Shown in pieces: positions 2 to 64,000 of a stretch of DNA of 64,000 bases. The DNA lies in the NCBI GenBank assembly GCA_020341815.1, contig CP070837.1, positions 1,172,575 through 1,236,574 on the forward strand. The letters are read 5' to 3'. The notes beneath the pieces were generated by a model. It had not been told where the DNA came from. It made no database searches and saw only the letters and a list, made by a program, of their open reading frames with translations. A program made the translations under genes and the position numbers. This DNA comes from Candidatus Omnitrophota bacterium. Lineage in GTDB: Bacteria; Omnitrophota; Gorgyraeia; JAFGHF01. Each line of letters starts with the position of its first letter. Within the stretch, counting starts at the first letter, position 1.

Positions 2-3000
2 TATGAGAAGAAAATGAAGCATATAGACCCCTTGGCAGATAGACTGAATGGAAGGGACAATCTATTAACTATAGGCGATGTGCACGAAATTATTGATAAG
101 TTTGGAGTTGATGAAAGACTGTTTGGTTTGCATCCTGATAGGGCAAAAGAGCGAGAGCTTTTATTAAAGAAAGCCCATGTCATTTCAGGCGCGGAGAGCA
201 AGAAAGAGTTTACTGCACAGCAATTAAATAGCGCTAAAATAGATAGAATTGGTATAGATGCTCTTCTTTTCCCAAATAGAAAAGTCAGAAAACATTTCTT
301 TGATGCCGACAGAGATTTATTTTATCCAATTGTTATTGGTAAGACAAAAGAAGAGTTAAAGATTACGTTAGTGGAAAAACATCAAATTTCTCAAGATTCT
401 GTGTCTGAAGCAGTCAATAAATTATTTAAAGGCAGAAATAATGATAAATGGAATGAGGAGTTGGAGCAGCTTTCGGCATCTCTTAAAAAGACTTATGCTT
501 CTCCTAAAGAATTATGGTTTGCTGTGGAGAGAGAAGCTATAGAAAAATTAATAGCATTAGGCGATAGCATTGAAAAGTTGAATAGGAACATTTCGAATAA
601 AGAATTAAGTGTTTATATAAACGCCTATTTTGGCGAAGAAGTAAATGTGCCTATAAATTATGATAGATTGAGAAGGATAATTGTTGGCGCAAATAAAGGT
701 TATCCTAAGATTGTAAAAGAAGTTGAGGAAATACATCTTCCGCATCTTCGGGAAGATTTTAAAATGGTTGATACGAATGCATACAAAGTGCAGGTTGAGC
801 CAGTATTTGCCAGACCAGGAGAAATGGTAAGAAACGGAAACGCTATGTCGGAATCAACTATTCTGGCAGAAAACTTGTTCGGCTTTATAATAAACATAAG
901 GTCATTTAAGCCCCGCACGGGTTACTATAAACGCTATCAAGGTTCTTTTGATTTCCCGCATGAAGGGGGGCATATAAAAACACATTTATTAACTGGATTG
1001 GGTCAAGATATTCGTAAGGAATTATATAAGAACGATGGCCTTGATATTCTTTATGGAAAAGGCGCAACAAAAGAACTTTTAACTTCAGAGGGCGAATGGA
1101 AGTATGATTTGTCATTTGGCGGCAATCATTCTATGAATGAAATGCTGGCAACAATTTATGGTTTAAGATATGTAGCCAGATATTTTCCTAATGTTAAAGA
1201 TCCAGAACTGCTTTGGATTATTAAAAATTTGACTGGTAGAGAAAGTAGCGATTTAAATCTTGCGATACTTTCAGAAATGCCATATAAAGACTTGAAATAT
1301 GAAATTGAATCAGCAAGAGAAGATTTAAGAGTTTCAGAAAAAGATAATGTCTATAAGAAATTTGAAGAAACAGGCAAAGGTAAGGTTGGCGGCAGTTATA
1401 TTAGCACGATGCATGCAGTTCCAGAGTTTAGAAAAGACTTAGTTGGGAAAATAAAAAGAGATTTTAAAGATGGCCGCATTCTTTCTATCGGTTGTGGTGA
1501 GGGTACGCTTGAACAGGAAATACAGGAACAAGGAATTAATGTAATCGGCATTGAGCCCAAAGAAGGCCTGGCCAAGGCAGCTAAAGAAAAAGGAATCGAT
1601 GTAGTAGTGGTGCCAGAAAAACGCAGTTATGTGTTACCGTTTAGGGGAGAATCATTTGATGCAGTAGTTCTCTCAGAAGTTACAGAACATCTGGATAATA
1701 TCATGTTTGTAGAAATTAATCGCGTATTAAAAGCGGACGGAAAGATCTACATCGCTACAAATAATGATGATGACCCTACAATAATGGCAAAAAGAGTAAT
1801 ACAGACTCAGCAAAGTGATGAAGAATTTAAGTTGATATTGGAGAATACAGGTTTTTCCAGTATAAAGATTAATAAATCACAAGGCAAGAATGAAGACTTG
1901 GGAGAATGCCGCATGACCTTTATTGAAGCTCAAAAGACTGCTTCATTGTTGCCACAGATAAAAGTCGGCACTATAATTCCGGTTGAACAGGATGGCAAGA
2001 GAGGGTTTGTTAAGGTGGTAAGTATTGATGAGAATGGAAAGATAAAATTTGAGCCGGTGGAATTACCTGAATTAAAGTTAGTTTATAGTAAGGAGACAGA
2101 AGAAGTAAGCCTCAAGCTTAATGGGGATTCCTCCAAGCCCGTTTCTCTGGCAGAGCTGAGGAACTATACTGCGGATAACGCCTATCCTTTAGCAGTTGAT
2201 GGCACGAGCCTACCTATATATTGTAGTGGTAATACGATATATGCGCTAGTTAATAATGAGTGGACAGAAGCATTGAATATACCTGCGCAGCCGGAGGAAA
2301 AAGAATTTGCCAAGGCTGCTACTAAGACGGCTCAAGACACTAAGTCTCAAGGCAGGCAGACAACTTTAGAAAAAGATTCTGGCCAAACCAAGCTCGGGTA
2401 TAAGCGGTGGACTGATGAACAACTAAAAGAGTTTGGCGAGGTGTTCGAGAAAATTCATGCCAATGCAGAGAAGAGGAATAGGAGTGCGGAAAAAGAGACC
2501 GGAGAGATTCAAGCTATTGCGCCTGAGCAAGGGGAGCCAGTTGTTGAGTTCTCTTCCGATGGAGGAAAGACATGGAGCGTTGTTGGGAATCCCAAAACTT
2601 CAGATGATAATCAGGAAGAGACGCCCAGCTCGCCTATAGATAATACCCAGCGCGAAGAGGAAAGAATGCCGGTTAGAGTGCCCGATAACAATATTGCCAG
2701 CTCCGCTCCAACGGCGCAGAGCCAGCGGCTTGCTATGGCAAATACAGGCAACGCAGAATTAAACCCTGAATATGCAGATCAGCTTCCTTATATAATTAGA
2801 CAACAGCAGGCGAACAGTCCTTATGGTAGTTCGCCATCTATCAGAGGGGCGCCGAAGCAGTCTCTGGACGCTTCCACCTTATTGGGAGCTAACCAGGGCG
2901 ATGTTAAATACGCGAATAAGGAATATGCGCGAGAAACAGGCTCTGGCGGTTCAGGCATAGGCGCAAGCAGCGCTGTCGGAACCAAAGGCCAGGGTGGGCA

Positions 3001-6000
3001 GGAAGTAGAAAAGACCTTTGAACAGCTTCGAATTGAAGCATTTAAAGTTGTAAGCGGAGTAGATTACCCTAGATGGCTGCCTGTTATTGTACCAAGACAA
3101 ACATCAAAGGTGCCTTCTAAAGAACCTGAGCAGCAAACCCAAGGTTTGCCCAATTCCAACGCTGGTAAATCTCAAAAGGGCTCTTCTCCAGCTATTATAG
3201 CTGAAGACCAAGTCCTATACGGTCCATCTGTCTTAAAACTTGGCAATAAAGTAGCAGAAGAACCTATCCGTAAGGCTATACAGGATTGGACCAGCTGCTT
3301 GATTCGCGGCCCGGCAACAATCCAGAAATTAGCTGAACGGATTTCGTCTGTCTTTAATCAAGAACCCACAACTGCAGAACCCTCTGCAAATGTGGGTCTT
3401 TTTGTGTCTGATAATGGCATAAGCAACCGGGGCGGGAATTCTTCCGCCGCCTCGGAGTTTTCTGCCCCGGTTGATGCCATTAAACATTTCGGCGTAACAG
3501 AGATCTCCTCTACCAACTCCTCCTCCCCCGCCCTGCAGACCTTGAAGAAAAGCTTTATAATGAAGCTGACAACCGGACTTATCGCTCTATGCATCGGCAC
3601 CAGCTTAGGAACATTCCTTAGCAACTCTGCGGTAGCAGCAGCCAGCCGCACTAAGGAAACGACAGAGATGCATTCTGAGGTTTCAGGTTCCATCTTGGCT
3701 CTTCAGAATAGACTATGGAGAGTGGATACCTTAATAACATATCTGGAGAATAAGGAAGCTTATGATGAAGAAGAGATAAAAGGAATAAGAGACTATTACA
3801 TAAACGTATTATTAGAAGATGTATTAGAGAAGGATGAAGAAACCAAGGAATACTTTAAGAAAAAGGTAAGAGGCTTAACTTACGATATACAAGGGTGGAG
3901 ATTCTACAGCCCTACCTTACCACACGAGAAAAAGGTATCTCTGCAGAGAGAAGCCAGGGCATTCATAGAGTTTATAAATGAGTATTTTGAGGTCTCTCCG
4001 GAAAAGAGTGATGCCGCCAGGGTAGAAAAATTTATTGGAGAAAAAGACCCCGAACCCGGAAAGATAGAACAGATAGGGTTGCTGACGAAAATAAAAGCCT
4101 ACCGCGATAGTATTGCCTCAAGAATACCCGAACAGGAAGAAGACCAGCCGGAGAAGCCAGCGGCAGAACAGACAGAGCCGGTAAAACAAACAACAGAAGT
4201 TGAGCAGCAAGAGCAGCAGTCTGAGAAGACAGAAGAAAAGACCGAAACAGAGCCCACAGAAGGCAAGGCTGAAGAGCCAACATCCGAGCCCGTTAAAGAG
4301 AAGCCAGCCACTACCAAGAGCAGCAGGAAGGCGCCAACTTCCCAGAGACTATACGCCCGTCCCACATGGGAAGCCGGTGAAACTCCCGATACGGTTATTT
4401 ATAGACCTGGAAACTATAAAAAAGACGGCCCGGATAGTAACGCCAATGGCTACACGGACAACACCTTAGAGGATGCCGCGCGACAGGTAACGGAATCAGA
4501 AGGAGACGAGCCTACTGTGCATGGGGTTGGCAGAAGGGCGCTTAAGATAGCAGAAGAGAATAACATTTCCGATCCAAACCTTATTTATCCTAAACAAGGA
4601 ATCATTATTCAAACAACCCCTGAAGCAGTAGAGAAGCTTACAGGAAAAACAGCCGACTCTCAAGCCGATGATACAACAGAAGGTACCGAAAAAGATCAGG
4701 ATGAGACAGAAGAGCTGACAGAAGAAGAAATCAAAGAGACAGCTGCCAAATTTGGCAAACTGGTTCAAAATCTTAATCAGAATAATATAGACAACATAGA
4801 GATTGACCTTAATAGCCTCTCCCCCGAGCTTAAAAAAGCCTTATCCAAGGAAATTAAGGAATGGCAGAAAGCAATAGATGAAGCTAAGCAGAAGATCCAG
4901 CAGGAAAACACTACCAAAGAAATTAAAAGCTGGATAAAAACAGGCCTTAACCCGGACAACGCCAACTTAGGCGAGACCAAGAGAAACATTCTAAAAACAA
5001 TTAAGAACTCCAGGTTACCCAAAGATATTAAAGACAAACTCACAGAAGAAACAAACGCCCAGTATAAAGAAGCTTCCACGCTTCGGTTAGAAGGCAGGAT
5101 AAAACCTATCGTAATCACATTTTGTAAGCTTGCAGGGATAGCAGTAGCCTTGATTTTGGCAGTGATCGGCTTATTTAAGCTGGCTAGAGCGCGCTTTGGC
5201 AAGAAAAACTTTCCACCGTTAACTGCAAATGCACCCCAGGCCAAGAATGAACCGAAATTCCAACTTCCCGACCTGCAGGCAAAGAAGAAGCTTGCGCAGA
5301 AGGGTCTAATTTTAGGCTTTATAGCTATTCTGCTTGGTCTGCCGATAATGCTTGGAGTGCTACCTCCGATGGAAGTGTTTGGTGCAAATCTTGGCCTTCT
5401 CCTGACAGCGGCGGGCCTGACTGTGACTATGTTGACGATATGTATATCAAGACAGTCCAAACTCGGAACATTAAGCCTGGGCAAGAGCAAGAAGGAAAAA
5501 GCTCAGCCATCCGAAAGTAAAACATCCGAGAATAAGGATAAAGCCGATACAAAGAAGAAAGAAGCAAAGTCAAAAATTTCCAAAGTACAAACAAAGAAAA
5601 GCCGGAAGGCCAAAGTTCTGATTGCCGGCCTATCCGCAACAGGTATTGCGCTTACTATCTGGGCAATCGATGTAGCCAATAAGATAACTAATAAATTAGA
5701 TAATGTTGGTATATTGCTGGCAGCAGCTGGTCTGGCAATAATACTTAGCGGCCTGCTAATCCTTAAGCTTAAGAAGCTTAAGGCAAGACAGCCTAAAGTA
5801 ATAAGCTTAAACATAGAGCCAGGCAAAGGAAAGTCCAAAGACAAAATAGACGGCCAGTCATTGCAAGAGAAAAAAGCCTTATTGCTCAGCAAAGGGTTAA
5901 CTCAAGATTATGTGAATAGTTTAAAAGAGGATAAATTAGAAAAGATAATTAAGCAATATGAGCAATGGGAAGGCGCATTAAAGAATGTAATTCAACAATT

Positions 6001-9000: not shown

Positions 9001-12000
9001 ACAGGCTGAAACGGATGCAGGTGCCTGGGAGACGATAAGCGATATAGCATATAATATCTATTATAACCTGGTTGTCAAATGGAGAGATAATACGAATAAT
9101 AGAACCTTACATGTAGTCGGTAAAAGCTTAGATCATGGCTTCTTAAGAGAAATAGAATTGAGAAATAGAACATCAGGAGTAGTTAGCAAGTATGATGTTT
9201 ATACTCGTAGAGCTAAGGCTTTAAAGAATCCTGCTTCTGAAGAAGAGCTTAATTCACATCTGAAAGAGCTGCGGGATAACACAGACCAGCTTATAACGTC
9301 TATGGTTTTAGTAATTGACTATTTAAGCCAGGATTATCTGCCAGCAAAGAATCAAACCGCAGAGCCCACGGATAAAAATAAGCTATTAGGGATGTATGGT
9401 AAAAAGGACACAGGGCTTTTGTTAAACCTACCTAAGATAGAGGAATCTTTAATTGCAGCAAGGGCATCTTCACCCGGAGCTAATCAGGAAGATTCAATTA
9501 CAGAAGCTTTGGCAAATAACGATTTTGATCCAGAATATCTTAACACGCTGTCTTTGCAAGAAAAAGAAGATATTTTAGCCAGAATGCAGAAATTCACCGC
9601 TCCGTTAAATGATCTTATTACCGATTTAGAAAATGAAAAGAAACAGCCCGAAGGATTGCTTAAGCAGCTTAAAAAATTAATTAAGAATTTCAGTAGCCCT
9701 GCCTTTGTTGTCGTTGAGCCGTTATTCGATTCTGTTGGTTCCATACTTGTAATGAGGGTTTCCTCCTCTCCGGCAACAGTGTCTCATGTGGAAGAGAGCG
9801 GAGGACAAGATAGCAACATAAATCCTATTACAGATGAACTTGAGAAACACATAAGGAACATAGTGGAAAAGATTAGAAAGGGAGAGTTGCCAAATTTAGA
9901 GGTAAAAGTCTCTAGCGAAGAAAGCGGAGGGCGTTCCTCTTCTCCGGTTAAAGGCCAGGAAAGATTGACAACAATGTTGATTAACTGGACAAAGGCAATG
10001 ATTCTTAGCCTATTCATAAAGGCGAAGCTGCGCAAGCTATTGTTAGACAGAGAGGCTCAAGGCAAGTTAAACCTTAGAAGTTTAATAATTAAATGGGGGG
10101 CGGGGATCCGCTGGTACATAGACAGGCTGAAAAAATCCACTGCGGGACCAAGAGGCAAGACCGGAGTAATACTTGTAATAGACAAAGAAAGACCAGGCCG
10201 ATTAAAAGATTTTAACAAAGGGGATATATTTGCAGGACAACTGAGCCTGCCGGTAGTGGTATTTTGTGCGCAGGCCTATGCAGAATACCTTAAGAAGACA
10301 GGGCTGGGAGCGTTTGTAAGCGGGGATAACCGCTTTTATTCCAAAGAATATGCGGATATGTTCAGCCGCGTATTGATAGGAAACGGCATAACCGTATATA
10401 GAGATAAGTACTTGCAAACCACACCAACGCCGGTAATATCCTATATGGCATTTTATTTTGAAGATGTAGACACAGGAGTGAGTGTAACAGCCAGCCATAA
10501 CCCGCCGGACCAAAACGCAATAAAGTCAGCTAACCGGGATGGAGGGGTGGACACGGATGAAAAGTCAGAGCAAATAGCAAATATAGCGAATGATATGTAC
10601 GCCCATCCCGATGACTATGCATTATATATTGGGGATGCTCGAAAGGCCAAAGAAGAGGATGCCTTAGAGATTTATTATGATAACTATATTAAAAAAGTTT
10701 TTGGCACTAAGTTTGCCCAGACATTGTCTAAAGCCCATAGGCAAAAAGGAAGCGAGTTTATTATAGATGGCTTGGGAGGAGTGGCCGGACGAGCAGCCGC
10801 ATACTATTTGAATCGGCTGTTTAATGGTAATAGCTGGAAAGACATTGTCACAGTATTAAATGCGAAAGCAGACCCGACAATGTTAGGGATACACAGGCCA
10901 GACCCCTCAAACCCCAAGACATTGGAGTATTCAGGAGTATTAGAGACATTGGCAGGGAATCCGAGCATATTGATGTCCGTGACAGCAGATATGGATGCAG
11001 ACCGCACGGGGCCGGCAGTAATTATACCGGAAAAAGATGTAGTCAAGGCAATGACGTTCGGCTTATTCGTGACTGAGATGAATTTCGAAGGCAAAAAGGT
11101 GCACATAGTGCGCTTTACGCCGAACCAGATATTCACCCTGTTGGCATACGAGAGGATATTGCAGGCCTTTGAGAAGTTAATAGGGACCAGGGATGTAGAT
11201 GAGATACTGCAGGCTATAAAAGATAAGAGAGTAGACCCCTCCAAGATACATGTAGTGATGTCACTGCCCACAACGAGGCTGATGTATGCATTGTGCAGAT
11301 TGTTTGGGGTAACCCTGCATTATACGGCAGTAGGATTTAAGAATTGCGGCAAGGTAGCGAAAAAGATAGAAGATGAAGACCCCGAAGCAATAGTGATAAT
11401 ATTAGCCGAAGAGAGTGGAGGAGCGATAATCGGTCCGTTAGAGCGGGGTGAAAAAGGAGAAGGCATACATAAAGATAAAGATACATTGGTGCTTGCATTT
11501 GGATTATTTGAGACAGCAGCCCGCTTAGCCTTAGAAGATAGCAGTATGCTTGAGTTCTATATAGAAATGGCCAGCCGATTGGGAGGGCTGTTCTATTATG
11601 CGCGAGTAGATGCTTACTTGCCGACACAGGAAAAGGCCGAAGAGATTAAGGATCCCCGGATAATACAAGAGGCAGCAGAAGCAAAACAGAGAGCGATAGG
11701 CGCCTTTATGGAATTAGAGAATAGTAACGAAAAACTAATTAATACTTTTGGTAAGGAAGATCTCCAATATGAAGAGGAAGAATTTACGGTACCCAATACC
11801 TTAATATTTATAAAGGAGGAGAATGAGTGGGTGCTGTTAGAGCCTCGAGGCAGAAGGCTCAAGTTTAGCGATAAGACCTCCTTGGAGATATTCCACTTGA
11901 CCGAAGGTGCAGGCGGCGGCCCTGTAATTACACTTTATGATACCGAAGGAAGGCTGCTCTACTGGACATTAATCAGGCCTTCGGGGACAGAGTCATTAAT

Positions 12001-51000: not shown

Positions 51001-54000
51001 TAAGCATGGCGCGCCTAAGGTTGCCGGGCGCATCTTTGAGGCAGTATTGAGGCTTTTCCCTGCGGGCGCCTCTGTCAATATTGACGAAGCAGTGCTCAAG
51101 TCAAGGTTCAATATAGAAATTACCCGCATTAAGGAAAAGAAGACCAAAAAATTATCATATCTCTGGTTTAACTCAAGAGGCCAGATGATTTATTCGGAAG
51201 ACAACGGCATCAGCGTGCAGAAAGGAGAAAAAACAGAGCGCACGCTTTATCTTCCTGCGCTTTCTGATGAGGTATCCCTGCCTTTTGCGCCTTTGTCCGC
51301 GGGAATGAGCCTTACCGTTCCTGCGCAAAACAGGGAATTCGACTGGATGTATGTCTATACCAGGAACTTACCGGAAGACGCAGAGTTTGAATTAGTATTT
51401 GAGGATAGGGCCTCCGGAAAGATTATAAGCGTAATTTCGCCGGTAGCCCTGAATGAGCGCTCTGAACTTAAAGAAAACCAGATTCTTTTCTGGAGCCCCT
51501 TCGAATATGCTAAGTTGGATTTCACCAATCAGAAAAAACATGAAGCATTAGGGAAGAAGGTAGAGAGGTTTACAGCCTTTAGAGACTATGATATTAGCAG
51601 GACTTCGGTTTGTTTCGGCACTCTTCGTTCATTGGTAAATAGAGAGTTATGGATTGTGCCTCTTGACCTGTTAAGGGCTAAAGGGGTTGAAAATATATCT
51701 CAGATAAAGGTCTCTCTGAAGGGAACAACTGCTGCTGGCCTTGAGATTTCTGAGTTAAGGGTTGCCGGGCCATATCCCCTGACAGAGAGAAAACTGGAGA
51801 CGCCTTTACCTGCGGCGGCGCTTAAGACAGAGGTCTTCTCGGATGGAGAGGCAATGCTGCTGGTTAAAGATGCCCTGGGTTTTGAGGCAACATATCTGTT
51901 ATCTTTGCCTACACGAAACGAATATAAAAACGACCTTCTCGCAGTGAGCGATAACCCCTGGATAGTTACCACGAAGAGGCTTACCTGGGAATCCTTAACC
52001 ACGCAGGACAAAGAGCCGGAGAGAAAAGTTAAGGGGACAACAGAGGTATTGGGAGCGCGCCGTGATGCCGTGCGAGTGCATTCGTCCTATAACGACCAGA
52101 TTCTCTATATACGGTTTCCTTTCTATGAATACAAAGACGGGAAGGAATACCTGCAGGTAATTTCCATGCCTATAGATTTAACTAAACAAGTAGAGATTGC
52201 CCGTTTTGACACACAAATAAGCGATACCGAGCCGATATCTATGGCCTATTTGACTCCTCGCTCAAAGGGTAACATAGTGGTGTTTGATTTAACCATAGGG
52301 TTAAATCAGCGGAATCCAAAGGCATCTGTTTACGCCTCCATATTGAAGGGCTTATCTCCCGAGCAGGTTCAGGAGCATATTGAAATTGACGCACTTCAGA
52401 TGCAGCTCATCAAATACTTTACTCTTAACGGACAAAAAGGTTTAGAAGAAATACTTAATTCTTTTGTTTCTATTTCCGATGCCGGGAAGCTTGAGCCTAG
52501 GCCTCTTGGCGAGCGAGAAGATGCGCCTTCGTTAGGTAAGGAAAAAAGTGATTGGTTAGAGATAGAGCCTCGATATGAAACTGAAGAGGCATTGGCAGAC
52601 CTTGCCTTGCCCAGAGCAGGCAAAAGCAAGGAAGAGGTTGCCCTTAGGTTTAGCAGGCTGAAGGAAGACGGGTTTGAACCCTTTAAGGTCATTGATTGGG
52701 ACAGTCGTCCTTCCTGGGTAGAGGCTGCCCTGGTTTATCTGCGCAAGAAGTTCCCGGATAAAGCAAAGTGGCTTGAAGGCCTTATTCGCTCAGGAAAGTT
52801 ACGAGCCGGCCCCGACAAGGAAAAAGTATTATACGGCGCAAATGACGGAGATACCTATCTTATTGCCACCAACATACCTCACCGGAATAAAGAAACAATC
52901 TTAACAGCCCACCTTATCTATGAAACGAACAGAGATACGCCTCTAAAAAATAAACTAGCCAGCAGAGAATATGTAGCATACAGCTTAAGAGCGGAACTCT
53001 CAGGGCGTAACGGCGTCTTTAAGGCCCGTATGCAGGAGTTTCGTTCTCAAGGCAGGCCTTTCTTTATTGTTCCTCAGGAGCTTCAAGAAGGACCGGCAGA
53101 TATTGCGCAAGGCTGGAATAATCCTTCAAATTACATTGACACTTTGGATGAATTAGCCATTTTGGAATTCCTCATCAATAACGATGAGATAGAGTTGGCT
53201 AAAGCTATAGCGGATACCTTCATAGATATTACCGAAGGCAGAAGGCCTTTGTGCGAGGCCTATCATAGGGATACAGGAAGGCCGTTAAAATACAATCCTT
53301 ACACAAAGAGAATAGTGGCAGCTGAAACTACCGCTCTCTTACAGGCAGAGGCAGCGCGCCTTATGCTTGAGTTACATCAAAAGACAAATGATAACAGATA
53401 TCTTGAGTTCAGCCAGAGTCTATTCTCTTGCCTGCTTAATAGATTCAATCCGGATATAAGAGATCATATCGACAGATCAAATGGACATAGTCTAAAGCTA
53501 TTCGCAAATATGGTCTGGACTACGCTAAGGCATCCTGTTAAATCCCTGGAGGTTATTGCAAACAACCACCTGCAAGAGGCCTTAACAAAAGAACTTTCCT
53601 ACGAAGAAGTCCGCCAGGCATTTGAAAAAGATAAATACAAAAGAGGCTTTACGGAATTTCCTTCCTGGCCGATACCCGAGCCGGGGCAGGCTTCGATGGA
53701 GGATAATCTCTATTTAGCCGATATTAATGCCCGAATTTACATCAATATACTGAAGATGCAACAGCTGCTTTCAAGCGCTGAGGTTGATAAAGACGATGAA
53801 GGGCTATTGTTGTTAAATTTAGTTTCTTCACGACAGGAAGAGTTTTTGAACGAGCATTTCTTTAACGACTTAGAGAATAACAGGCTTCCTTATGACGGAT
53901 TTAGCTTTACAGCTCCTTTGGCTGAGCGGCCCGATGCCGGAAAAATGTCAGAATTACTCGCCAGGCTGAGGGATACCTGGCGTCAAAATATGGATAAAGG

Positions 54001-57000
54001 CCGCTGTAAAAAAGCATGGGGGGTCCTCAAGACAATAATTGAGTACGAAAAGGAGAAGCAGACCTTTAAGTTTGGCAGAGAAGATAAGACAAAACAGACA
54101 CATTCTCAAGACAAGCGCAGCATAAAACCGTTAAGCAGGGGCGGCTTTGAGGCGAGCCTCTCTATTATCGAGGCCTATCAGCATTATCGCAGAAGAAATC
54201 CCGATAGCGCCGGTTTAAACAACGGGCAGTTAATGGAATTAGCCATAGACCTCTTCAGGAGCAATGAGATAGAGACCTGCGGTATTTCGGGAGTAGGCGC
54301 TCATAGAATAATTTATCCTGCGGATATGGTGCATATGCAGGAGGCGCTTCTTCTGTTGGGTTATGACAGCGCTTTGCCCGAGATGATTAATAAGTGTTTA
54401 TCACGCGAATTGACGCTCCCCAATTTTATTACGGAAAGAAAAGTCGGTGCGGATATGGGAGTGGTTAAGGCAAGCAATGAGAATGAACGCATTCTGCCCG
54501 GCCAGTCAATACCTGTTACCATTCGTCATTTAAATAGCTTGGAGGAAAGCTTAAAGAAGGACCATTCTTTAGAGCAGGATACAAATAGTAACTTGAAGGC
54601 CTCAGGCTATAAGCCGAGGTTCTTTTTACCCTTGAACGCATTAACTATTATATTCCTGGTTGTTCTTGCCCTGATTGCCCTGCTGCTTTCTATATCTATG
54701 CCTTGCGTTGCAACCTGGTATATTTACAGATTTCAGTTGAAAAAATGCGCCAAAGGAATCTCCGGAGGCAAGCGTGTTTTTGACAACGAGCATTTAAAGC
54801 GCTCCCATAAATTTTATTTAGACACTATCCTTAAACTAAACAAAAAGCGCTTTGCCCGCCGTTCCGACCTCAGCACTCTTGGAGGAATGATATTCTGGCA
54901 GTTTGTCTTTATTGCCGCGGTGCTTAAGTGGATAGATCTGTCCGGAAATGAGCAATACGAGGCACATTTAGAGAACTTCGTAATTGCGCTGCATAATTAC
55001 CTGGGAGAAAAGTTTGCTGAGCAGAAAGACGAATGGATTTGCGTAAAGCTCGAAGGCCGTTTGCAGGAATATGCCGAAGAAATAATAAGGCATCTCGACC
55101 CGGATAATTTACAATTACATCAGGCCCAGGCCGTTATCGATAGACTGAATATAGCCGGCTCCTATATTGAAATTAAAGCAAGTTCGCCGCTATTAACCCT
55201 CCATCCAGATTTTGTAAATAAAATCAACGAATTTAGCAAAAAGAATATCTCTTCAGTCCATCCTTTGCTTAAACTCCCGAGTATATTTTTAGTTCCTTTT
55301 ATCTTCTATAGTCTAATTGTTATAACTTCAATGGTGGCACATCACGCCCCTCAGGACTTGGTGGCAAAGACGCTATGGCTGGCTTTTGCCCAGGCAATAA
55401 AAGGCGTGAGTATTTTCTGGCCGATTCTTTTCGGAATACTTTTATCGGCGGCCTTTTCAGCCTTTGTCTTTCATTGGCTGAAGGGCTTAAGAAGAAGCAG
55501 CCGCTTTGACGGGGTTCTTAATCTTGTTTTAGGTATCGGGTGTTTAAGCCTTCCTTTGATTGCTGCGGGCCTGGTTTTGAAGCTGACCGGTTTGGTTTTG
55601 CTTGCCTTGGCTTCCGGCGCAGTAACTCTGTCGGTTTTAGCGGAGATTCACTGGTGGGTTACCCGTAAAAGGCATAGCCGTATTGTCAGCGCCTGCCTGG
55701 GAGGGGTATTTGCTGCCCTTGCATTTATCGTAGGCTTCTCTGTTGAGTCGGCCACATTCCCGCTGCTTGCCCTTAAAGAGGTAGTAGTCTTTATTCTCTC
55801 TCTGGAGGCCTTGGCCCTATTATGGTCGCGGGCTCTCTCCTGCTGGCCTCTGCCTCTTGTGCCTGTGTTAACGACACTCTTTAAGTTTGTCGTTTATACG
55901 CCTTTTGCTATAATCGGGATGTTTCCTATCTTTGGGCATCTTACCGAAATAAGGATGCGCCTGAAGAGCTGGTGGCGGGACATGATTTCCTCTTTTTATA
56001 ATCCTTCGGACAATGAGCCGCATTCGGCAATAGGCATGTCCCTCCATTATTATTTCCGTCCGACTATTTTGATAGGAAGGGCCCGTAAGCACATTGTCTT
56101 CTTGCTTGCCACTGTTATAAGTTTCGGTTTGATGCATTTCTTTGGCGCGGAGTTCAGCCTGTTTTTCTGGTTTACAAACCGTTTAGGGGCCGGCGAACTG
56201 TATAAAGTTATTACGGGTTCTGCAATATTTGTTATGTTTGCAGAATACCTGCTTTTATTCTCTTTGTTTATGGGCCTGATGAATATGTTGGCCGTGATAG
56301 TTGTTTGCACAAAGTTTATAGTCTGGTCAGTGATTATGTTTCCTGCTTTGCGGCTGGCCTGGGATAAGCTGGGCCTGGGGCATATAATTATTGGCCAGTG
56401 GTTTTTTGTCTGGGAGGCAAACTGGGCGACTATTCGCATATCTACAAACGGCACGCAGGGCTTCTGGAAAGGAATAAAGCTGTGGGGCTGGGGCGAGCTT
56501 GACAGGGTCGATAATAGTAAGAAATATTTAGCAAGCTACTTTGGAAACCAGGCGCTGTCTTCACAGAAGCTTTTAGCAACATATATGTTTGAGGTTATGG
56601 TGAACGAGGGTAGCCCTGAGGAAGCACGTGAAGAGGCAATTCGGGTAGCGTTAGAAGATATGGGAGGATGGTTTAAGGTCTTCAGGCAGAACAGATTTGC
56701 GCCTTTTAAGAATATTTATGAGGAGCTAAAACGGGCCTGTCCCGACAGATTTACGCATACAAACTTTACCGAAAAAGAGGCAAAGGATGTTTTAACGGCT
56801 TTCTTCAAAGCTGAATTGGACAATGTAAATGACCATGAGAGCGAAACCGTAGATTTCGATTTCCCTGCAGGAATTGGCCATTCCTTATTTATTCTGGAAG
56901 ATTTGGAAAAGCTTAGAGAGCGTCCGGACTTTCCATTGATTGTCGCAGGATTTAAGCTGCACTGGCGTATGGGTGAGGCTTATAAAGCCGGGGGAAGCAT

Positions 57001-60000
57001 AGAGGTAACCTTTAACCTTGCAAACAAGATGCGCGAGGCCAAAAGGATAGGAATTGCCCACAGGATTATTCTGGATATAGGCCGTAACAACCTTAAAAAG
57101 GATAAAGGTCCCACTGACCCTATGGCTTTGCTTCAATGGCAGAAGGAATTAGAGAGGTTGAAGCAGGAAATAGTTGCAGAACGTCGCAAGAATCCTAACC
57201 CTTCAAAAAATAAAGCCTTGAAGAAGCTCACTGGTGATGCAATTGAATTTCTTTCTCTGGTGGCCGACGATAGAGAAAGAATCTATTTTGCCCGCAGGAT
57301 TGAGGAAGAGACGGGCGTTGAATCTTATCATGCGCATACCAAGACCGCGATAGGGCAGAAAGGCGGCGGCCAGCTTTATGGTTATTATCATATGTGTGGC
57401 TATGATGACTCTCATGTGTTCAGTTACGAGGTTAACGATCAGAATAGCACCACTCAGGATGTGCGCAAATGGGCCCGCGGCGTGCAGAGGATTATAGCGG
57501 CTTACGATTGCGATAATCCTATCAGTATCGATATAAATATGCGTAGCCACAATCGCACTGCGGAAGATTTCCATAGCTACTCCGATACCACAAATCTTAT
57601 AGAGCAGGGCGCTTGCCTGATGGCAGAGGCCTTAAACCATATATGGGGGCCTGGTTGGAACTCCAAGACCCTGGTCTTATTTGAGGAGCTTCTCACGGCC
57701 ATAAGTTATCGGGACTTTCCGGTTATGCCCTTTACTAATGCGACTCCCCTGCGCGGTGGGGTGTTCAAGCGTCTATGGGCCAGGCTCTTTGGCGGCCTGA
57801 GCGCTCCTTTTATGCTCCCTGATATCAGCGAAGATAATGCGACCCTGTTGAGTAATATACATACCGCCGCTGCCTTGGGATACAAACCCAAGGTAAAGAC
57901 GTCTGAAGAGGACGGAGAAAGAGCGCGCGGTGAGTTGAATGACGTCCGGGAAATCTTTACCCGTTTCCGCTGGTCTGAAGGCAGGGCGCAGATGGAGAAA
58001 TGCCCGCAGTTAATACACCAGATGGCCTTCAGTTTTCTTCCTTTATGCGAGAGACTTTCTTATGAGATTATCGGCTGGATTTATCAGGGAAATCATATAT
58101 CAATGCTTGCCAATATTATCCTGCCTTTTCTTATCTATTGGGACCTTAATTGCTTCCGTGGAGCCTTAGCTGCCTTATGGTTCTTGGGCCTCTTTGCCAA
58201 TCAGGTTCTTACCCTTGCTGCCCTTATCGTATGCGTGCGGAATAAGGGCTTAAGCCCGTTACAGTCTTTATTAATAGGGGCAGCCAGCTTTTTCTGCGTT
58301 GCTAAGATGTATAGCCTGTGTCTGGCAGGCCCTCCGGCTTTAGCTATACTTATCTACGGCGGCATTAATCTCGGCATTAATATCTGGCTGTCCAACCGTA
58401 TCCGCGATGCCTATTTGTTTGCCCCGGGAGTAACCCTGGAGTTCTGCGCTCAGCAGAGGAATAATTTCGTCGGCTCAGACTTAGTCTTTAGAATCTCCGG
58501 TGCAGGAAATTACGCTACCCGGCCGGATGTTGCCGCAGGCATATTATATAAGCCTGATGCTAAAGCATGGGTTGCTAAGGCTCCGGAGGTGTTAAGAGAC
58601 AAGAAGGGCAAATTTTACCGTATGGTTACTTGGCTTTGGAAGAAGGCTGCCGTAATATGTATTTCCTTATTATTCCATCTGGATTTAATTTCCTGGCCTA
58701 TTTTCAATAAATTTAGCTGGATAAAGGCATTCTATTCAAAAGAGAATATGGGATATTGGGACAAGGAAAAGGAAGACTGGATACAGGGAAAATTGGGAGG
58801 GGTTCAAGAGGTGCTCAAGTATCAGTTTATTAGCAAGTGGGATGATAAACCTAAAGACCCCCGCAAGTTCAGGCATAAGCTTAGCTTTATGGATACGCCA
58901 ATGAACAATGCTGTGGCAATAGGCCTGTTTGCTGCCTGCTGGTATATCCTGTTTATGATGCGGCTTAATCTTTCACACTTTGTTTTGATTGCAACTGCCA
59001 TAATCTTTTCTCAAGGCCAGGCCTTTGGTGCCTTCCTTTGTAAGCAGAAAATCGGCAAAGCCAGGGGCCTCAGCGTTATCGTTGACGGTATAATGAGCTT
59101 CTTCGGCTTTCTCCTGGGAATCGGCGCATTGCTGCTTTTTGTCAGCAGGTCTTATCCCGGATTTAAGGTTCCTCTTCCTTTTATAGGTTTGGTGAGTCCT
59201 AATATTGCGCTTCTGTTAACCCTTGTCTTTGTCGGATGTCCATTTATAGTGAACGGGACATACCTGCGCATTGTCCATACTTGGCTTTATTTCCGTAAGC
59301 GTAACCTGAAATCCCTAACTATAGATGACTTGCAAAGAGTAAAGCTGGCGGGTGTAGAGTTGTACACCGGCTATCTTGCCCGCTGGAGCCAGTGCCTGTT
59401 TAGGCACTTTATATGGTCGTTACTGCTCTGCTCGCCATTGGTGTATATCTCCCGCCAGCCGGAATATACATTCATTCAGGGCAAAATAAAGCATATTCTC
59501 ATTGTAGACTATTTCGTTTATAAATATATCTTTTTGGTGGGAGGACTTATCCTTTCTCTCATTTTGTTAGCCAAATTCAGCAATGGAATTGCGAAAAGGT
59601 TCTGGGCTTATAGAGCCTTAAGCGCACAGCGTATTTACCTTAATAAGGAGGCGCAACTTCAGAAAGAGATTAGGCGGGAATTAGAGTCTACCCGTTGCGG
59701 GTTGGATAACGCCTTGACAAAAGCGCAGTGGAATAGGGTAAAGAAACTAATTGCGGAGATAGAATATAAGGTTAGTCCTTATTGGGCTTGCATAGATAAG
59801 AGCGTGTCTTTCGTTCTTTACCTCCTGGCTGCGGCAGAGCTCGTTTTTGCCGGCTTAACCTTTACCTTTATGGCGCTAACTGCCCTTTTATCATTATGGA
59901 CGATTCTGCCCATTATTCCAGAGGTTGCAAGAGACGCTATTACAACTATAGGTAATAGTACTGATTGGATAAAAGCAAAGATGCCAAAGAAGTTTTCCTC

Positions 60001-63000
60001 CCCGATTATTTTACTTATGGCGGCATCAATCACATTGCTCTGGGCCTCATCTGCTTTTGCTGCAGAGGCGGTTGTTGATACCGCGATTCTTGCAGGCATT
60101 GCGGGAGCACTTCCAGAGATAATTTTAGCTATGATGATAATTGTAGCGGCATTTTACATTATTCTTTATGCTCTTCCTGGGTGCGAATTTTATGGCGCAG
60201 GCAAGCTGAGAAAATTATTCTCTAAACTTAATCCTTATTTAAGCCCTGTTATCAGGCGAATTAGAAGTTCAATCTTTCTTTCCACCTTGACTTTTCTAAT
60301 TTTCTTGCCCGGGAAAACTTGGGCTCAGGAAACAGCAGTAGATGTGTTATTCGATTGGATATGGCCTATTATAAAATGGGGAAGTATGGCATTCGTAGCA
60401 TTTATTATTTTGTTCTTAATAATGGTATTAATACTGTATGAAATAGATAAAAGATATATGGCTCGCCTGAAGATAGAGAACCCGCAGCTCTGGGCCTATA
60501 AAAAAGTTGTGAGATCATTCGAAGCTATTAGGCATTCAGAACAGAAGTTTTTCGAGGCATTAAAGAAAGTGAGGAAGGAGGAGCGAGAACATGCTTACAA
60601 ATGGGTAAGCTATAGCACTGAGCAGGGATGTGAGGACTCGGAGAGCACACCTTGGGACTATAATGCTGACGTCATTAAGTCAGAGCTACAAAATATCAGA
60701 GAAAAAAGGAAGGAAATAGAGGAACTTTCTCTGCAATATTTCCCGGACATATATTATGCATCACAGATAGAACGAATGGAAAGTGAGATACCTCAGCTGG
60801 GCAAATTTATAGAGGAGTTGAATAAAAAGAAGCCTGCACTGGAAGAGCTATTAGATAATCTAGAAAAAGGAAAATGCCCAAAATATAAGCGTTATGATTG
60901 GAAAAAGCAAAGAGAGGTATATGAAGATATATATATGCCCTTCCAGATACAAGGAGTAATAAAGTCCATAAAAGAATGTCTGGAAGGAATTGCCGATAGG
61001 GAAAAGATTTTGAATAAATTAAAGGTAAAAAAGGAAAACTTCAAAAGAAAGCTTGAGGAATATTGGCAGGATAATCCGGACAAGAGTTTTTACGATGAGC
61101 ATATAGAGGAGATATTGGAATTGAATAAACATCATCTGCATAGCAGCCATCCTGACGATTACAGGCCTGAATATCACGGGACAAGGTATGATTTACTCAG
61201 CAGAGTAAAGACTTTCGCCAAAAAGAGCTCCGATAATGGCCCCAATTTTTCCTCTCCCATTATTGAAAGAGTCTCTTCATCTATCTTGCACCATGGCTTA
61301 ATTGCAAGCTCATCTATAGGAAAGATATTTCTTGTATTAACTGCGGCAGTTTTTTACATTTTATACAAAATAGTTAAACACAGCCTCGATAAGCAATATT
61401 CCTTTTCGGAGGAAGAGCAAGAAATAGTAAAGAATATTGCTGCTCAGATGGAAAGTTTAAGATATAAGAGTTCCCGTACCTTATGTTTCGCTAAGGAGCT
61501 TGTCGATATTTTAGGGATAGATTTAATAAATGAAGTAAGAACGAAATATCAAGATGCGAAAAACAAAAATAATATAGAAGATGAATGTAAAATAATAAAA
61601 CTTTTAGCTAAAAATATCGTTGAGAAATTTGAATATCATAATGGCGTGTTTGAATTAGGTACGATTATTGAGATAGGGAAAGCTAGTTGTTTAGGGTTTA
61701 CTCAGGTATATTTTGTGTTAGATGATTATATTGGTTTTTCTATTGAACCAATTCATGTTGTTAAAAGCTTTCATAGAAAAGGCGGCAGAATTGCACATGC
61801 AGCTTCTTTGTTTACGTTATCTAATGGGCAAAAAGTAATGGTTGATGGAACGCCGCGCACTTTTCTTGTGGGAGATAGATTTGGATTAGAAGAGTATTTT
61901 AATAAAAAAGGTCTTTATTATAAGGTAAAACAGGGCAGGCAAGGAATTTATCATATAAAATTTAGAATACTTGATAAAGATAGCTTATCAGCAATGGTAT
62001 ATAATAATATGGGAGTGGCTTTTAATGATAGAAGAGAATACCAAAAGGCAATAAAATATTTTAAGATAACTATTGGGATAGACAACAGAAGCCGGAGCGC
62101 ATATTATAATTTGGGGTATACGTATCAGCAGTTAAAGAAATTTGAAAAGGCCATTGAATATTATAAAAAAGCTATAGAAATAGACCCAGAGTTTGATTCC
62201 GCTTATTATTGTATAGGAGTTTCTTTGGCTAATATTTGTGTTATATCGGGAAGATATAATCCAGAGATTGAGTATTATTTTAACAAGGCCATAGAGTTGA
62301 ACCCGTCATCACACAAAAACGAGGCAACGGAAATATTGGATGATGTCCGCAGAAGGTTATTCAACTCCTCAAGCCCCACAACCTCCAGCAGCCCTGTTAC
62401 TTCATTAGAGAGGTGTCTAAGGGAAGCCGAGGAACTTTATAGAAAGGCTCAAAGCAAAGAAGATATAAAGGAAATGGCAAAGAAATATCAAACAGCGATA
62501 GACACGATAGAAGATTATCAAAAGCCACATGATTCTTCCCTAAAGCAATATTTGAAAATAGCTAAGCTCGGAAAGCGAAGAGCAGGGGCATTATTAAATT
62601 GTTTTGATGAAAAAGTGGAAATTTTAGATGCGCAAGGTAACCCAACGGGTAGAAACATAACAGTATTTAAGGCACATAGGCAAGATTTCGGCGAAGTGCA
62701 TGGAGCTGTAGGCCTTGAGATAGGAAGCCTAACAGGAAAAAGGTCCCTTGGGCAGGTAAGAGCAGAGGATAAACTTGTATTTCCCGGAAGGGTTACTGTT
62801 GCCGCTTGCGGGCAGATCGATGCGGGAAAAACTCCGGAAGAAGCAATAGAGGAAGAAATAGAGGAAGAAATAGGGGTAGGCGACTTTCGTTTAAAGTTAA
62901 AAGCCGAACAATTGATAAAAATAGGACGATTTGACTTATTTTTAGGTAAATACGATTTTGTTTATTTAAACAAACAAGAGAAAATTAAGTTAATAAATAT

Positions 63001-64000: not shown

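Follow-up and report, generated by a model that had tools for sequence, protein, structure and literature searches.

A stop-free frame of 21,333 codons, very probably an internal segment of an Omnitrophota-type giant gene

The 64,000-nt stretch of DNA analyzed in this work (contig CP070837.1, positions 1,172,575 to 1,236,574; hereafter the window, meaning the whole stretch at its full length) poses a simple question: does the single reading frame that runs through it from one edge to the other belong to one real gene, and if it does, what kind of protein does that gene encode? A first-pass annotation, made from the letters and a list of open reading frames (ORFs), had described the window as an internal piece of a giant gene with both termini outside. 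Our analysis leads us to the same view, with good confidence: the window is very probably a genuine internal segment, of at least 21,333 codons, of an Omnitrophota-type giant gene, whose product is a largely non-repetitive, membrane-threaded 'multi-enzyme' polypeptide. Omnitrophota giant genes, common in these tiny and host-dependent bacteria, are among the largest in any organism, occupy a sizeable share of very small genomes, and are thought to mediate both attachment to a host or prey and attack on it; the window adds a sequence-unique example of them.

A recount of stop codons in the six frames found no TAA, TAG or TGA among the 21,333 codons of frame +2 (nt 2-64000), exactly as the annotation had claimed. 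Mononucleotide composition predicts one stop per 15 codons, that is, about 1,426 stops in this frame, and the probability of observing none is approximately 1e-641 (log10 P = -641). The other five frames, which had been described as shredded with a maximum of 237 aa, are indeed so, with 1,915 and 1,700 stops on the plus strand and 991, 718 and 1,267 on the minus strand; outside frame +2, the longest stop-free run covers 241 codons and the longest ORF listed has 237 aa (4777-5490, minus strand). An alternative genetic code was considered as an explanation and rejected, since all three stop codons are missing from frame +2 and abundant in the remaining frames. The coding signature is present in every part of the window: the purine fraction at codon position 1 is 0.58-0.72 in each 3-kb bin, and GC content across these bins follows the order GC1 > GC3 > GC2 or a similar one. 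Homology starts at codon 2 and recognizable domains extend to aa 20,968, so the frame is coding from edge to edge and the gene ends lie outside the window; the final 365 codons, past the last recognizable domain, are stop-free too. The open frame, the coding signal and the domains found along the whole length thus sustain the idea of an internal piece, and the sequence is consistent with translation of the window as one product. No tRNA, tmRNA or Rfam family was found embedded in the window. As for composition, the product is rich in leucine (9.8%), glutamate (9.4%) and lysine (8.7%), in agreement with the Lys/Glu-rich coding style noted in the first pass, whereas the description of the DNA as AT-rich was overstated, given a GC content of 42.3%.

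To which lineage does such a gene belong? A word-indexed search with aa 1-5,000 against 5.8 billion cluster representatives returned a single match, P0001, a partial protein of 5,601 aa labelled 'C39 peptidase domain' and encoded in a metagenome-assembled genome (MAG) of Candidatus Omnitrophota (GCA_043801485.1, contig JAZDLY010000031.1). Residues 4,757-5,188 of this protein align with aa 2-446 of the window at 52-54% identity, the match beginning at window codon 2. P0001 carries the C39 peptidase at its N-terminus, and on its contig the giant-gene start is immediately preceded by two T2SS-F (PF00482) genes and a series of small ORFs (nt 7828-9593; 10001-26802), while the giant gene itself extends past the contig end. 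The collinearity with P0001 suggests that about 4,750 further amino acids precede the window, although architectures in these proteins are mosaic. An exhaustive HMMER search with aa 1-1,200 against 1.84 billion representatives matched aa ~100-457 to P0001, P0004 (4,429 aa), P0006 (2,524 aa) and three short Logan fragments, and matched the methyltransferase that follows to P0002, P0003 and P0005 (7,821 aa), together with thousands of generic methyltransferases; in the same search, aa 650-1,200 had no match, and aa 1-1,200 as a whole had neither a close relative nor a self-hit. All five named relatives (P0001, P0002, P0004, P0005 and P0006) come from Candidatus Omnitrophota/Omnitrophica MAGs, a result that supports the earlier suggestion of an Omnitrophota-like lineage. 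Scans of genome and metagenome contig collections with aa 1-500, and of viral contigs with an exact 40-mer, did not recover the contig of the window; a two-sequence alignment retrieved the P0001 contig alone among the genome contigs and nothing among the metagenome contigs.

The segment shared with these relatives, at aa ~100-450, is 25-35% identical to P0004, P0006, P0009 and P0151. It has no Pfam match, and its profile gave nothing significant against PDB. We describe it as a putative zinc-metallopeptidase-like module based on a HEGGH motif at aa 320-324 (nt 959-973) and a conserved NEM at aa 379-381 downstream of it; HExxH and the downstream NE(M/L) are kept in four of the six aligned module sequences. 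In two Logan fragments, the HExxH position is degenerate (PNQLAQ). The order of module and methyltransferase recurs in P0005, which has both parts, and the module is also present in P0001, P0004 and P0006. Two other segments may be further peptidase-like modules, as judged from their sequence: a second HExxH site, HEFRH, at aa 7120-7124 (nt 21359-21373), and a weak transglutaminase-core-like match, of cysteine-protease fold, at aa 6222-6275 (nt 18665-18826; 18.7 bits against a cut-off of 23).

The remaining domains were identified by running Pfam on 5,000-aa pieces and then on 1,000-aa tiles covering nearly the whole protein, mostly in two registers, together with tight sub-sequences. The tiling matters for the result, as the long queries hid weak domains: SecA_DEAD surfaced only in pieces of at most 1,000 aa. 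Approximately ten Pfam families were found over 21 thousand aa, about 10,000 aa are without any Pfam match, and TPR alone recurs, at three sites. One enzyme is an alpha-D-phosphohexomutase, which retains all four of its catalytic motifs: TASHNP (aa 3496), DMDADR (aa 3663), AEESGG (~aa 3803) and RPSGTES (~aa 3993). The conservation of the full set argues for continuing selection on catalysis by this module. Its best NCBIfam model is the archaeal GlmM TIGR03990 (Arch_GlmM; E 1.8e-27, 96 bits, far under the equivalog cut-off), and the bacterial GlmM model scores 38 bits. Toward the end of the window, a NUDIX-like segment is marginal, and the canonical signature GX5EX7REUXEEXGU is absent from it. 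In the second half of the chain, aa 10,001-20,000 are dark in Pfam apart from a GH2_C-like match and have no PDB sequence match. A beta-sandwich-like segment (aa ~13160-13250) comes after this glycosidase-like barrel; an AlphaFold2 single-sequence model of aa 12,860-13,260 has low confidence (pLDDT 38) and displays a beta/alpha alternation and then beta strands. Further along, the beta-rich region at aa ~14960-16250 is a candidate for an RHS-like beta-helix of the type present in Omnitrophota giants, and the corresponding model (aa 15,150-15,949; pLDDT 28) is too poor to establish a fold.

A divergent SecA-like motor, with motifs readable over aa 8087-8660 (nt 24260-26000), is located between predicted transmembrane (TM) helices. 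With three ways of cutting the protein into pieces, PF07517 (SecA_DEAD) exceeds its gathering score of 24.6, reaching 28.8-29.7 bits (E 5e-7), and PF01043 (SecA_PP_bind) follows it faintly, with E 0.13, at the expected place. SecA_SW, the scaffold/wing, had no match in the Pfam scans, and the region had no match among PDB sequences. The segments MSTGKTE, LEAD, TPLVI, SGTS and TIITAN are those that we take to be counterparts of SecA motifs. Compared with canonical SecA, the Walker A motif is shortened (MSTGKTE versus MxTGEGKT), the Walker B region reads LEAD...TPLVILG versus DEVD...TPLIIS, and a further counterpart reads ITIITANLTRNANF versus VTIATNMAGRGTDI. The window motor shares with SecA the order of a SecA_DEAD domain above its gathering score and a faint preprotein-binding domain, as well as the TPLVI, SGTS and TIITAN counterparts; it differs in forming part of a giant chain with TM helices on either side, in the MSTGKT form of Walker A, in LEAD versus DEVD, and in having no detected SecA_SW. 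With motifs of this kind, it may be a pseudo-ATPase.

The membrane layout was estimated from Kyte-Doolittle hydropathy in 19-aa windows, which gave 26 candidate TM helices at a threshold of 2.0 and 46 at a threshold of 1.6; these 26-46 candidates form 13 clusters. After the single candidate helix at aa 8,897-8,915, located past the SecA-like motor, TM-free stretches of 6,017 aa and 3,263 aa follow, with one marginal candidate between them, for a total of ~9,300 aa; two dense TM clusters (aa 18,213-18,768 and 19,394-20,145) come next. This long stretch holds a region of about 1,600 aa that is likely to form a long helical or coiled-coil stalk, as well as the PG_binding_1 domain, the glycosidase-like barrel with its beta-sandwich-like segment, the repeats of ~100-110 aa and the beta-rich region. 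On this basis, the chain would be inserted co-translationally, with many crossings of the inner membrane, and exported segments would lie between cytoplasmic enzyme modules. The need for S-adenosylmethionine (SAM), sugar phosphates and ATP would place the methyltransferase, the phosphohexomutase and the SecA-like ATPase, respectively, in the cytoplasm. Because SecA-type ATPases have to be cytoplasmic, and domains that bind peptidoglycan or resemble glycosidases work extracellularly, the most economical interpretation is that aa ~8,916-18,212 would be the exported 'business end' of the protein; its export may be assisted in cis by the SecA-like motor. If Velamenicoccus archaeovorus and the Omnitrophota giants already published are taken as a guide, this part would attach to the envelope of host or prey cells and attack it. 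The succession of a SecA-like module, a single TM helix and a nearly TM-free stretch of this length bears on the more general problem of how chains of more than 20,000 aa are exported.

These features can be compared with those of gene families already described. West-Roberts 2023 (10.1101/2023.11.21.568195) reported Omnitrophota giant genes encoding up to 85,804 aa, with many TM regions, divergent SecA_DEAD and preprotein-binding domains without scaffold/wing, N-terminal C39/S8 peptidases and an upstream locus resembling a type II secretion system (T2SS). The same work used the terms 'large' for proteins of at least 10,000 aa and 'giant' for those of at least 30,000 aa, listed as family criteria a peptidase near a signal peptide and pilZ and sugar-uptake genes downstream, described an RHS-like beta-helix of ~1,500 aa, and defined an 'Archaeovorin' type with methyltransferases, glycosyl hydrolases/transferases, NUDIX, TPR, HEAT and PGM/PMM domains. 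According to Seymour et al. 2023, 77 of 116 Velamenicoccia genomes contain ORFs longer than 20 kb; cited there as well is the V. archaeovorus LiM protein of 39,678 aa, the type example of Archaeovorin, with 42 TM helices, whose peptides rise when cells are attached to prey. Nielsen and Lui 2026 (10.64898/2026.06.07.730766) collected 3,650 proteins of at least 10,000 aa and 348 of at least 30,000 aa, with a maximum of 147,155 aa and mostly from Omnitrophota, so the statement in the first-pass annotation that genes of comparable size are reported only rarely no longer holds. In that collection, 94% of the long proteins have TM helices or a signal peptide, ~2% of residues lie in TM helices, 80% of the long proteins are sequence singletons, and one class, the 'multi-enzyme metabolic cluster', carries PF08241 and PF02878-80.

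With at least 21,333 aa in view, the window protein is above the limit for 'large', and its resemblance to the Archaeovorin type is extensive. Both consist of a non-repetitive giant ORF with many TM helices and long unannotated stretches, and both have a divergent SecA_DEAD domain followed by a preprotein-binding region with no scaffold/wing detected. The window also shares with this type the methyltransferase, a glycosyl hydrolase (GH)-like domain, the marginal NUDIX-like segment, PGM/PMM, TPR, peptidoglycan binding and a peptidase-like HExxH, and in neither case are dockerin or TSP3 domains seen, none of which appeared in any Pfam tiling of the window; its beta-rich repeat region could match the RHS-like beta-helix, and its closest homologue, P0001, has the N-terminal C39 peptidase and the upstream T2SS-like locus. 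In contrast, HEAT, GT5/GT1, GGDEF and SLT were not detected in the window (HEAT and the glycosyltransferases, GT, being frequent in the family and not strictly defining, and the larger part of the gene perhaps lying beyond the window), its sequence similarity to known members is limited to aa 1-650, and its SecA motifs are more degenerate than those of canonical SecA. A similar picture emerges from the comparison with the multi-enzyme proteins of Nielsen and Lui 2026 (their Class 1). Many Pfam families tile the window protein and none dominates, PF08241, PF02878/79/80, NUDIX and TPR are among them, the protein would be membrane-anchored with a TM density of a few percent, and it is sequence-unique. 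It differs from Class 1 in its low Pfam density, with the dark block of 10 thousand aa, and in having no kinase, response-regulator or starch-synthase modules. As judged from its sequence, then, the window protein matches the published Omnitrophota giants in every testable feature except the HEAT and GT domains. This class of genes has been described repeatedly since 2022-2023, with thousands of examples, and the present gene is confirmatory and not surprising.

A different family of giants has to be considered on the basis of size alone, namely the repeat-scaffold adhesins (of RTX, Bap, RCC1 or Chlorobium chlorochromatii type), together with the megasynthases that make non-ribosomal peptides or polyketides (NRPS/PKS). 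The giant ORFs of C. chlorochromatii (36,805 aa and ~25,000 aa) are of comparable size and belong to an epibiont attached to another cell; they are built of repeats of haemagglutinin, fibronectin and toxin type, whereas the window protein is non-repetitive, TM-rich and enzyme-bearing. Indeed, self-BLASTP of 500-aa pieces gave few matches, and the protein is almost free of repeats. The matches consist of one diverged tandem array of ~480 aa (aa 14,147-14,624; 38% identity over 350 aa, E 2e-61), one match between two TPR segments, and weak repeats of ~90 aa near aa 15,200-15,520, with self-match E values of 1e-3 to 3e-5. At the DNA level, the longest repeats are shorter than 200 nt at 82-84% identity, and the spacing between direct-repeat copies is a multiple of three in all 15 cases. 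We rejected the adhesin explanation, as the bulk of the protein is not tandem, repetition is limited to aa 14147-14624, tandem repeats are otherwise tiny, and no adhesin repeat families appear in the Pfam tiles; the megasynthase explanation was rejected because condensation, adenylation, ketosynthase (KS), acyltransferase (AT) and carrier-protein domains are absent from the same tiles. The probability that we would leave to either of them is vanishingly small. Long repeats of the kind prone to assembly collapse were not found by self-BLASTP or by the tandem-repeat and DNA-repeat scans, and the window is not a collapsed repeat. Two in-frame micro-tandem repeats were also observed, both of them young: one at nt 13869-14010 (42 nt x 3.4 copies, 98% identity, peptide EVKNGTNDVAELKQ) and one at nt 22236-22384 (33 nt x 4.6 copies, 89% identity, peptide YRSYEKAKLAN).

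The window is not homogeneous in its synonymous composition. Four blocks have a GC content of 0.34-0.36 at 4-fold sites and three others have 0.45-0.51, with maximum-likelihood change points at nt 1,883, 5,897, 9,842, 12,236, 26,747 and 59,912. The two sharpest steps, at 26,747 (support 26,702-26,822) and 59,912 (support 59,744-60,053), each with a log-likelihood gain of ~50, delimit a central block of high GC at third codon positions (GC3). Several steps lie close to module edges: the codon at 26,747 immediately follows the TM helix at aa 8,897-8,915, 9,842 and 12,236 bracket the mutase, and 1,883 comes after the methyltransferase. Such edges are dense, and the chance of one step coinciding with a TM or module edge is estimated at ~0.2. 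The coincidence of the mutase with a high-GC3 block hints at a separately acquired module. The preferred codons are identical in both types of block (TTA, AGA, ATA, CCT, GAT, AAT and TAT). The P0001 giant gene has a uniform GC3 of ~0.52 over 16.8 kb, without a mosaic.

A short protein motif follows a related distribution. The chain has 29 copies of SSP[AVI], whereas shuffled sequences predict 0.64 (shuffle maximum 4), which amounts to a 45-fold enrichment; the motif is often located just ahead of a TM helix. All 29 copies lie within aa 876-7,834 or aa 19,999-21,170 (nt ~2627-23503 and ~59996-63511), and none within aa 7,835-19,998; given that the central block represents 52% of the chain, this arrangement has P ~6e-10 under uniform placement. 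The motif is enriched in Omnitrophota proteins P0005 and P0002 and not in P0001, P0004 and P0006; its role could lie in processing, in modification or as a linker. Neither the GC3 mosaic nor SSP[AVI] is mentioned in the main texts of West-Roberts 2023 and Nielsen and Lui 2026. Taken together, the mosaic and the motif gap suggest that the central 33 kb has a separate history (cassette exchange), or a separate compartment or role, or, less likely, that the contig is chimeric. If they reflect real biology, they offer handles on the evolutionary assembly of giant genes and on whether their products undergo processing.

How, then, should the mosaic be read? One explanation is that the frame was stitched during assembly from at least two related giant genes, belonging to distinct populations or genomes in a metagenome, so that the true genes are shorter or differently composed. 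The jumps in 4-fold GC between ~0.34 and ~0.50 at six change points, two of them very sharp, and the absence of SSP[AVI] from the central block when it is present in both flanks speak for such joins. However, the frame is kept through all six change points with no stop or frameshift, the junctions and their surroundings contain no long or near-identical repeats that would favor mis-joining, the same codons are preferred in both block classes, which suggests one lineage, and the steps located at module edges (the TM helix end, the edges of the PGM domains, the methyltransferase end) fit modular evolution better than random joins. A wrong join of the flanks would leave intact the central block, an ORF of ~11,000 codons in its own right. 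We consider a chimera unlikely. A biological counterpart of this explanation, which we put forward only tentatively, is that the giant gene is a recent mosaic in which recombination with a different, higher-GC Omnitrophota lineage introduced a cassette of ~33 kb (nt ~26,750-59,910; aa ~8,916-19,970). It is motivated by a block that starts exactly at the end of the signal-anchor helix past the SecA-like motor, has a 4-fold GC of 0.50 versus 0.34 and contains no SSP[AVI]. In addition to the stalk, which is predicted to be exported, the proposed cassette would carry the peptidoglycan-binding and glycosidase-like domains, the region of beta repeats and the TM cluster after it. If this were true, Omnitrophota would exchange whole surface-exposed 'ectodomain cassettes' inside giant genes, a route to altered host or prey specificity, and SSP[AVI] would be a lineage- or compartment-specific processing or modification motif. 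The same motif enters into a further possibility, which would modify the giant-gene reading: the chain may be a polyprotein from which many proteins are released, the cuts being made by a C39-type peptidase at the N-terminus, by the internal HExxH module or by both, with SSP[AVI] as possible cutting sites. Cleavage was raised as a possibility by West-Roberts 2023, and the C39 peptidase at the N-terminus of P0001, the conserved HExxH module within the window and the excess of SSP[AVI], often at module or TM boundaries, are compatible with it. Nevertheless, no cleavage site is known, and the 11,000-aa central block without SSP[AVI] would remain uncut. C39 peptidases cleave after Gly-Gly, not at SSP. 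We therefore regard processing into many proteins as possible but doubtful.

The assignment to Omnitrophota also has competitors, as very large genes are present in other phyla of the PVC group, in Elusimicrobiota, in Margulisbacteria and in Actinobacteriota, and some Actinobacteriota giants also carry SecA_DEAD; moreover, the named relatives cover just 3% of the window protein. Against an origin in one of those phyla stand the exclusively Omnitrophota provenance of the named relatives, the collinearity of the best match with a C39/T2SS-associated Omnitrophota giant, and a domain repertoire that fits the Omnitrophota multi-enzyme class, and we judge such an origin to be improbable. The reading that we favor, a genuine internal segment of an Omnitrophota-type giant gene, is itself subject to several points that weigh against it. 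The demonstrable Omnitrophota relatives are confined to aa 1-650 (~3% of the protein), in searches that covered aa 1-5,000; HEAT and GT5/GT1, the most frequent Archaeovorin domains, are absent from every Pfam tiling, and there is no C39 domain within the window. The SecA-like motifs are partly degenerate, which makes ATPase activity uncertain, the topology rests on a crude hydropathy scan, both AlphaFold2 single-sequence models are unusable, and the sharp GC3 steps inside the ORF could mark assembly joins. The positions of all features are listed in Table 1.

Table 1. Position of the features described in the window, with the evidence for each of them.
Feature	Position (nt)	Strand	Evidence
Single ORF, 21,333 codons, both edges open	2..64000	+	0 vs ~1,426 stops; coding signature in all bins
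Conserved Pfam-unannotated module, putative Zn-metallopeptidase-like (aa ~100-450)	299..1351	+	Homologues; HEGGH + NEM
Class I SAM-dependent methyltransferase (aa 485-599)	1454..1798	+	PF08241, E 2.4e-14, 54 bits, and related families; PDB methyltransferases
Cluster of 5 candidate TM helices (aa 1703-1920)	5108..5761	+	Kyte-Doolittle windows 1.76-2.76
Alpha-D-phosphohexomutase, PGM/PMM/GlmM-type, domains I-IV (aa 3413-4005)	10238..12016	+	PF02878 82.5 bits, PF02879, PF02880, PF00408
Weak TPR segment (aa ~4106-4195)	12317..12586	+	TPR_1 E 5e-5 to 6.5e-5, under gathering score; PDB TPR proteins
TPR repeats (aa 7708-7813)	23123..23440	+	TPR_1 73.7 bits, 3 stretches; PDB consensus TPR proteins, OGT
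Cluster of 4 candidate TM helices (aa 7962-8078), adjoining the SecA-like domain on its N-terminal side	23885..24235	+	Kyte-Doolittle
Divergent SecA-like motor: SecA_DEAD (aa 8087-8383) and faint SecA preprotein-binding domain (aa 8365-8467)	24260..25402	+	PF07517, PF01043
Single candidate TM helix (aa 8897-8915), before the long TM-free stretch	26690..26746	+	Kyte-Doolittle
Central high-GC3 block, ~33 kb (aa ~8,916-19,970), almost entirely Pfam-dark	26747..59912	+	4-fold GC 0.505 vs 0.34-0.36 in flanks; SSP[AVI] 0/29
E/K/R/Q/L/A-rich, Pro/Gly-poor region, ~1,600 aa (aa ~9001-10600)	27002..31801	+	200-aa bins: EKRQLA 0.59-0.71, PG <=0.07
PG_binding_1 peptidoglycan-binding domain (aa 9764-9805)	29291..29416	+	PF01471 25.7 bits vs gathering 23
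GH2_C/GH72-like (clan GH-A) TIM-barrel glycosidase, N-terminal part (aa 12874-12951)	38621..38854	+	PF02836 32 bits vs gathering 21, E 9.4e-8; PF03198 22.5 bits
Four to five diverged tandem copies, unit of ~100-110 aa (aa 14147-14624)	42440..43873	+	Self-BLASTP; DNA repeat D1
Beta-rich (G/V/T/Y/D) region with weak ~90-aa repeats (aa ~14960-16250)	44879..48751	+	Composition, self-matches
Cluster of ~11 candidate TM helices (aa 18213-18768)	54638..56305	+	Kyte-Doolittle
Cluster of ~12 candidate TM helices (aa 19394-20145)	58181..60436	+	Kyte-Doolittle
TPR repeats (aa 20664-20742)	61991..62227	+	TPR_1 71 bits; PDB TPR proteins E 3e-79
Marginal NUDIX-like segment, degenerate Nudix box (aa ~20927-20968)	62780..62905	+	PF00293 21.2 bits vs gathering 21.1

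A few minor observations concern signals other than the coding frame. Promoter-like sites occur in the window at chance frequency, and the antisense ORFs all have at most 237 aa. Sites resembling terminators, that is, a hairpin with a T-run, were counted over nt 1-60000 on both strands, with 19 on the sense strand, none of them strong, and 57 on the antisense strand; this skew is probably due to the A-rich composition (AT skew) of the sense strand.

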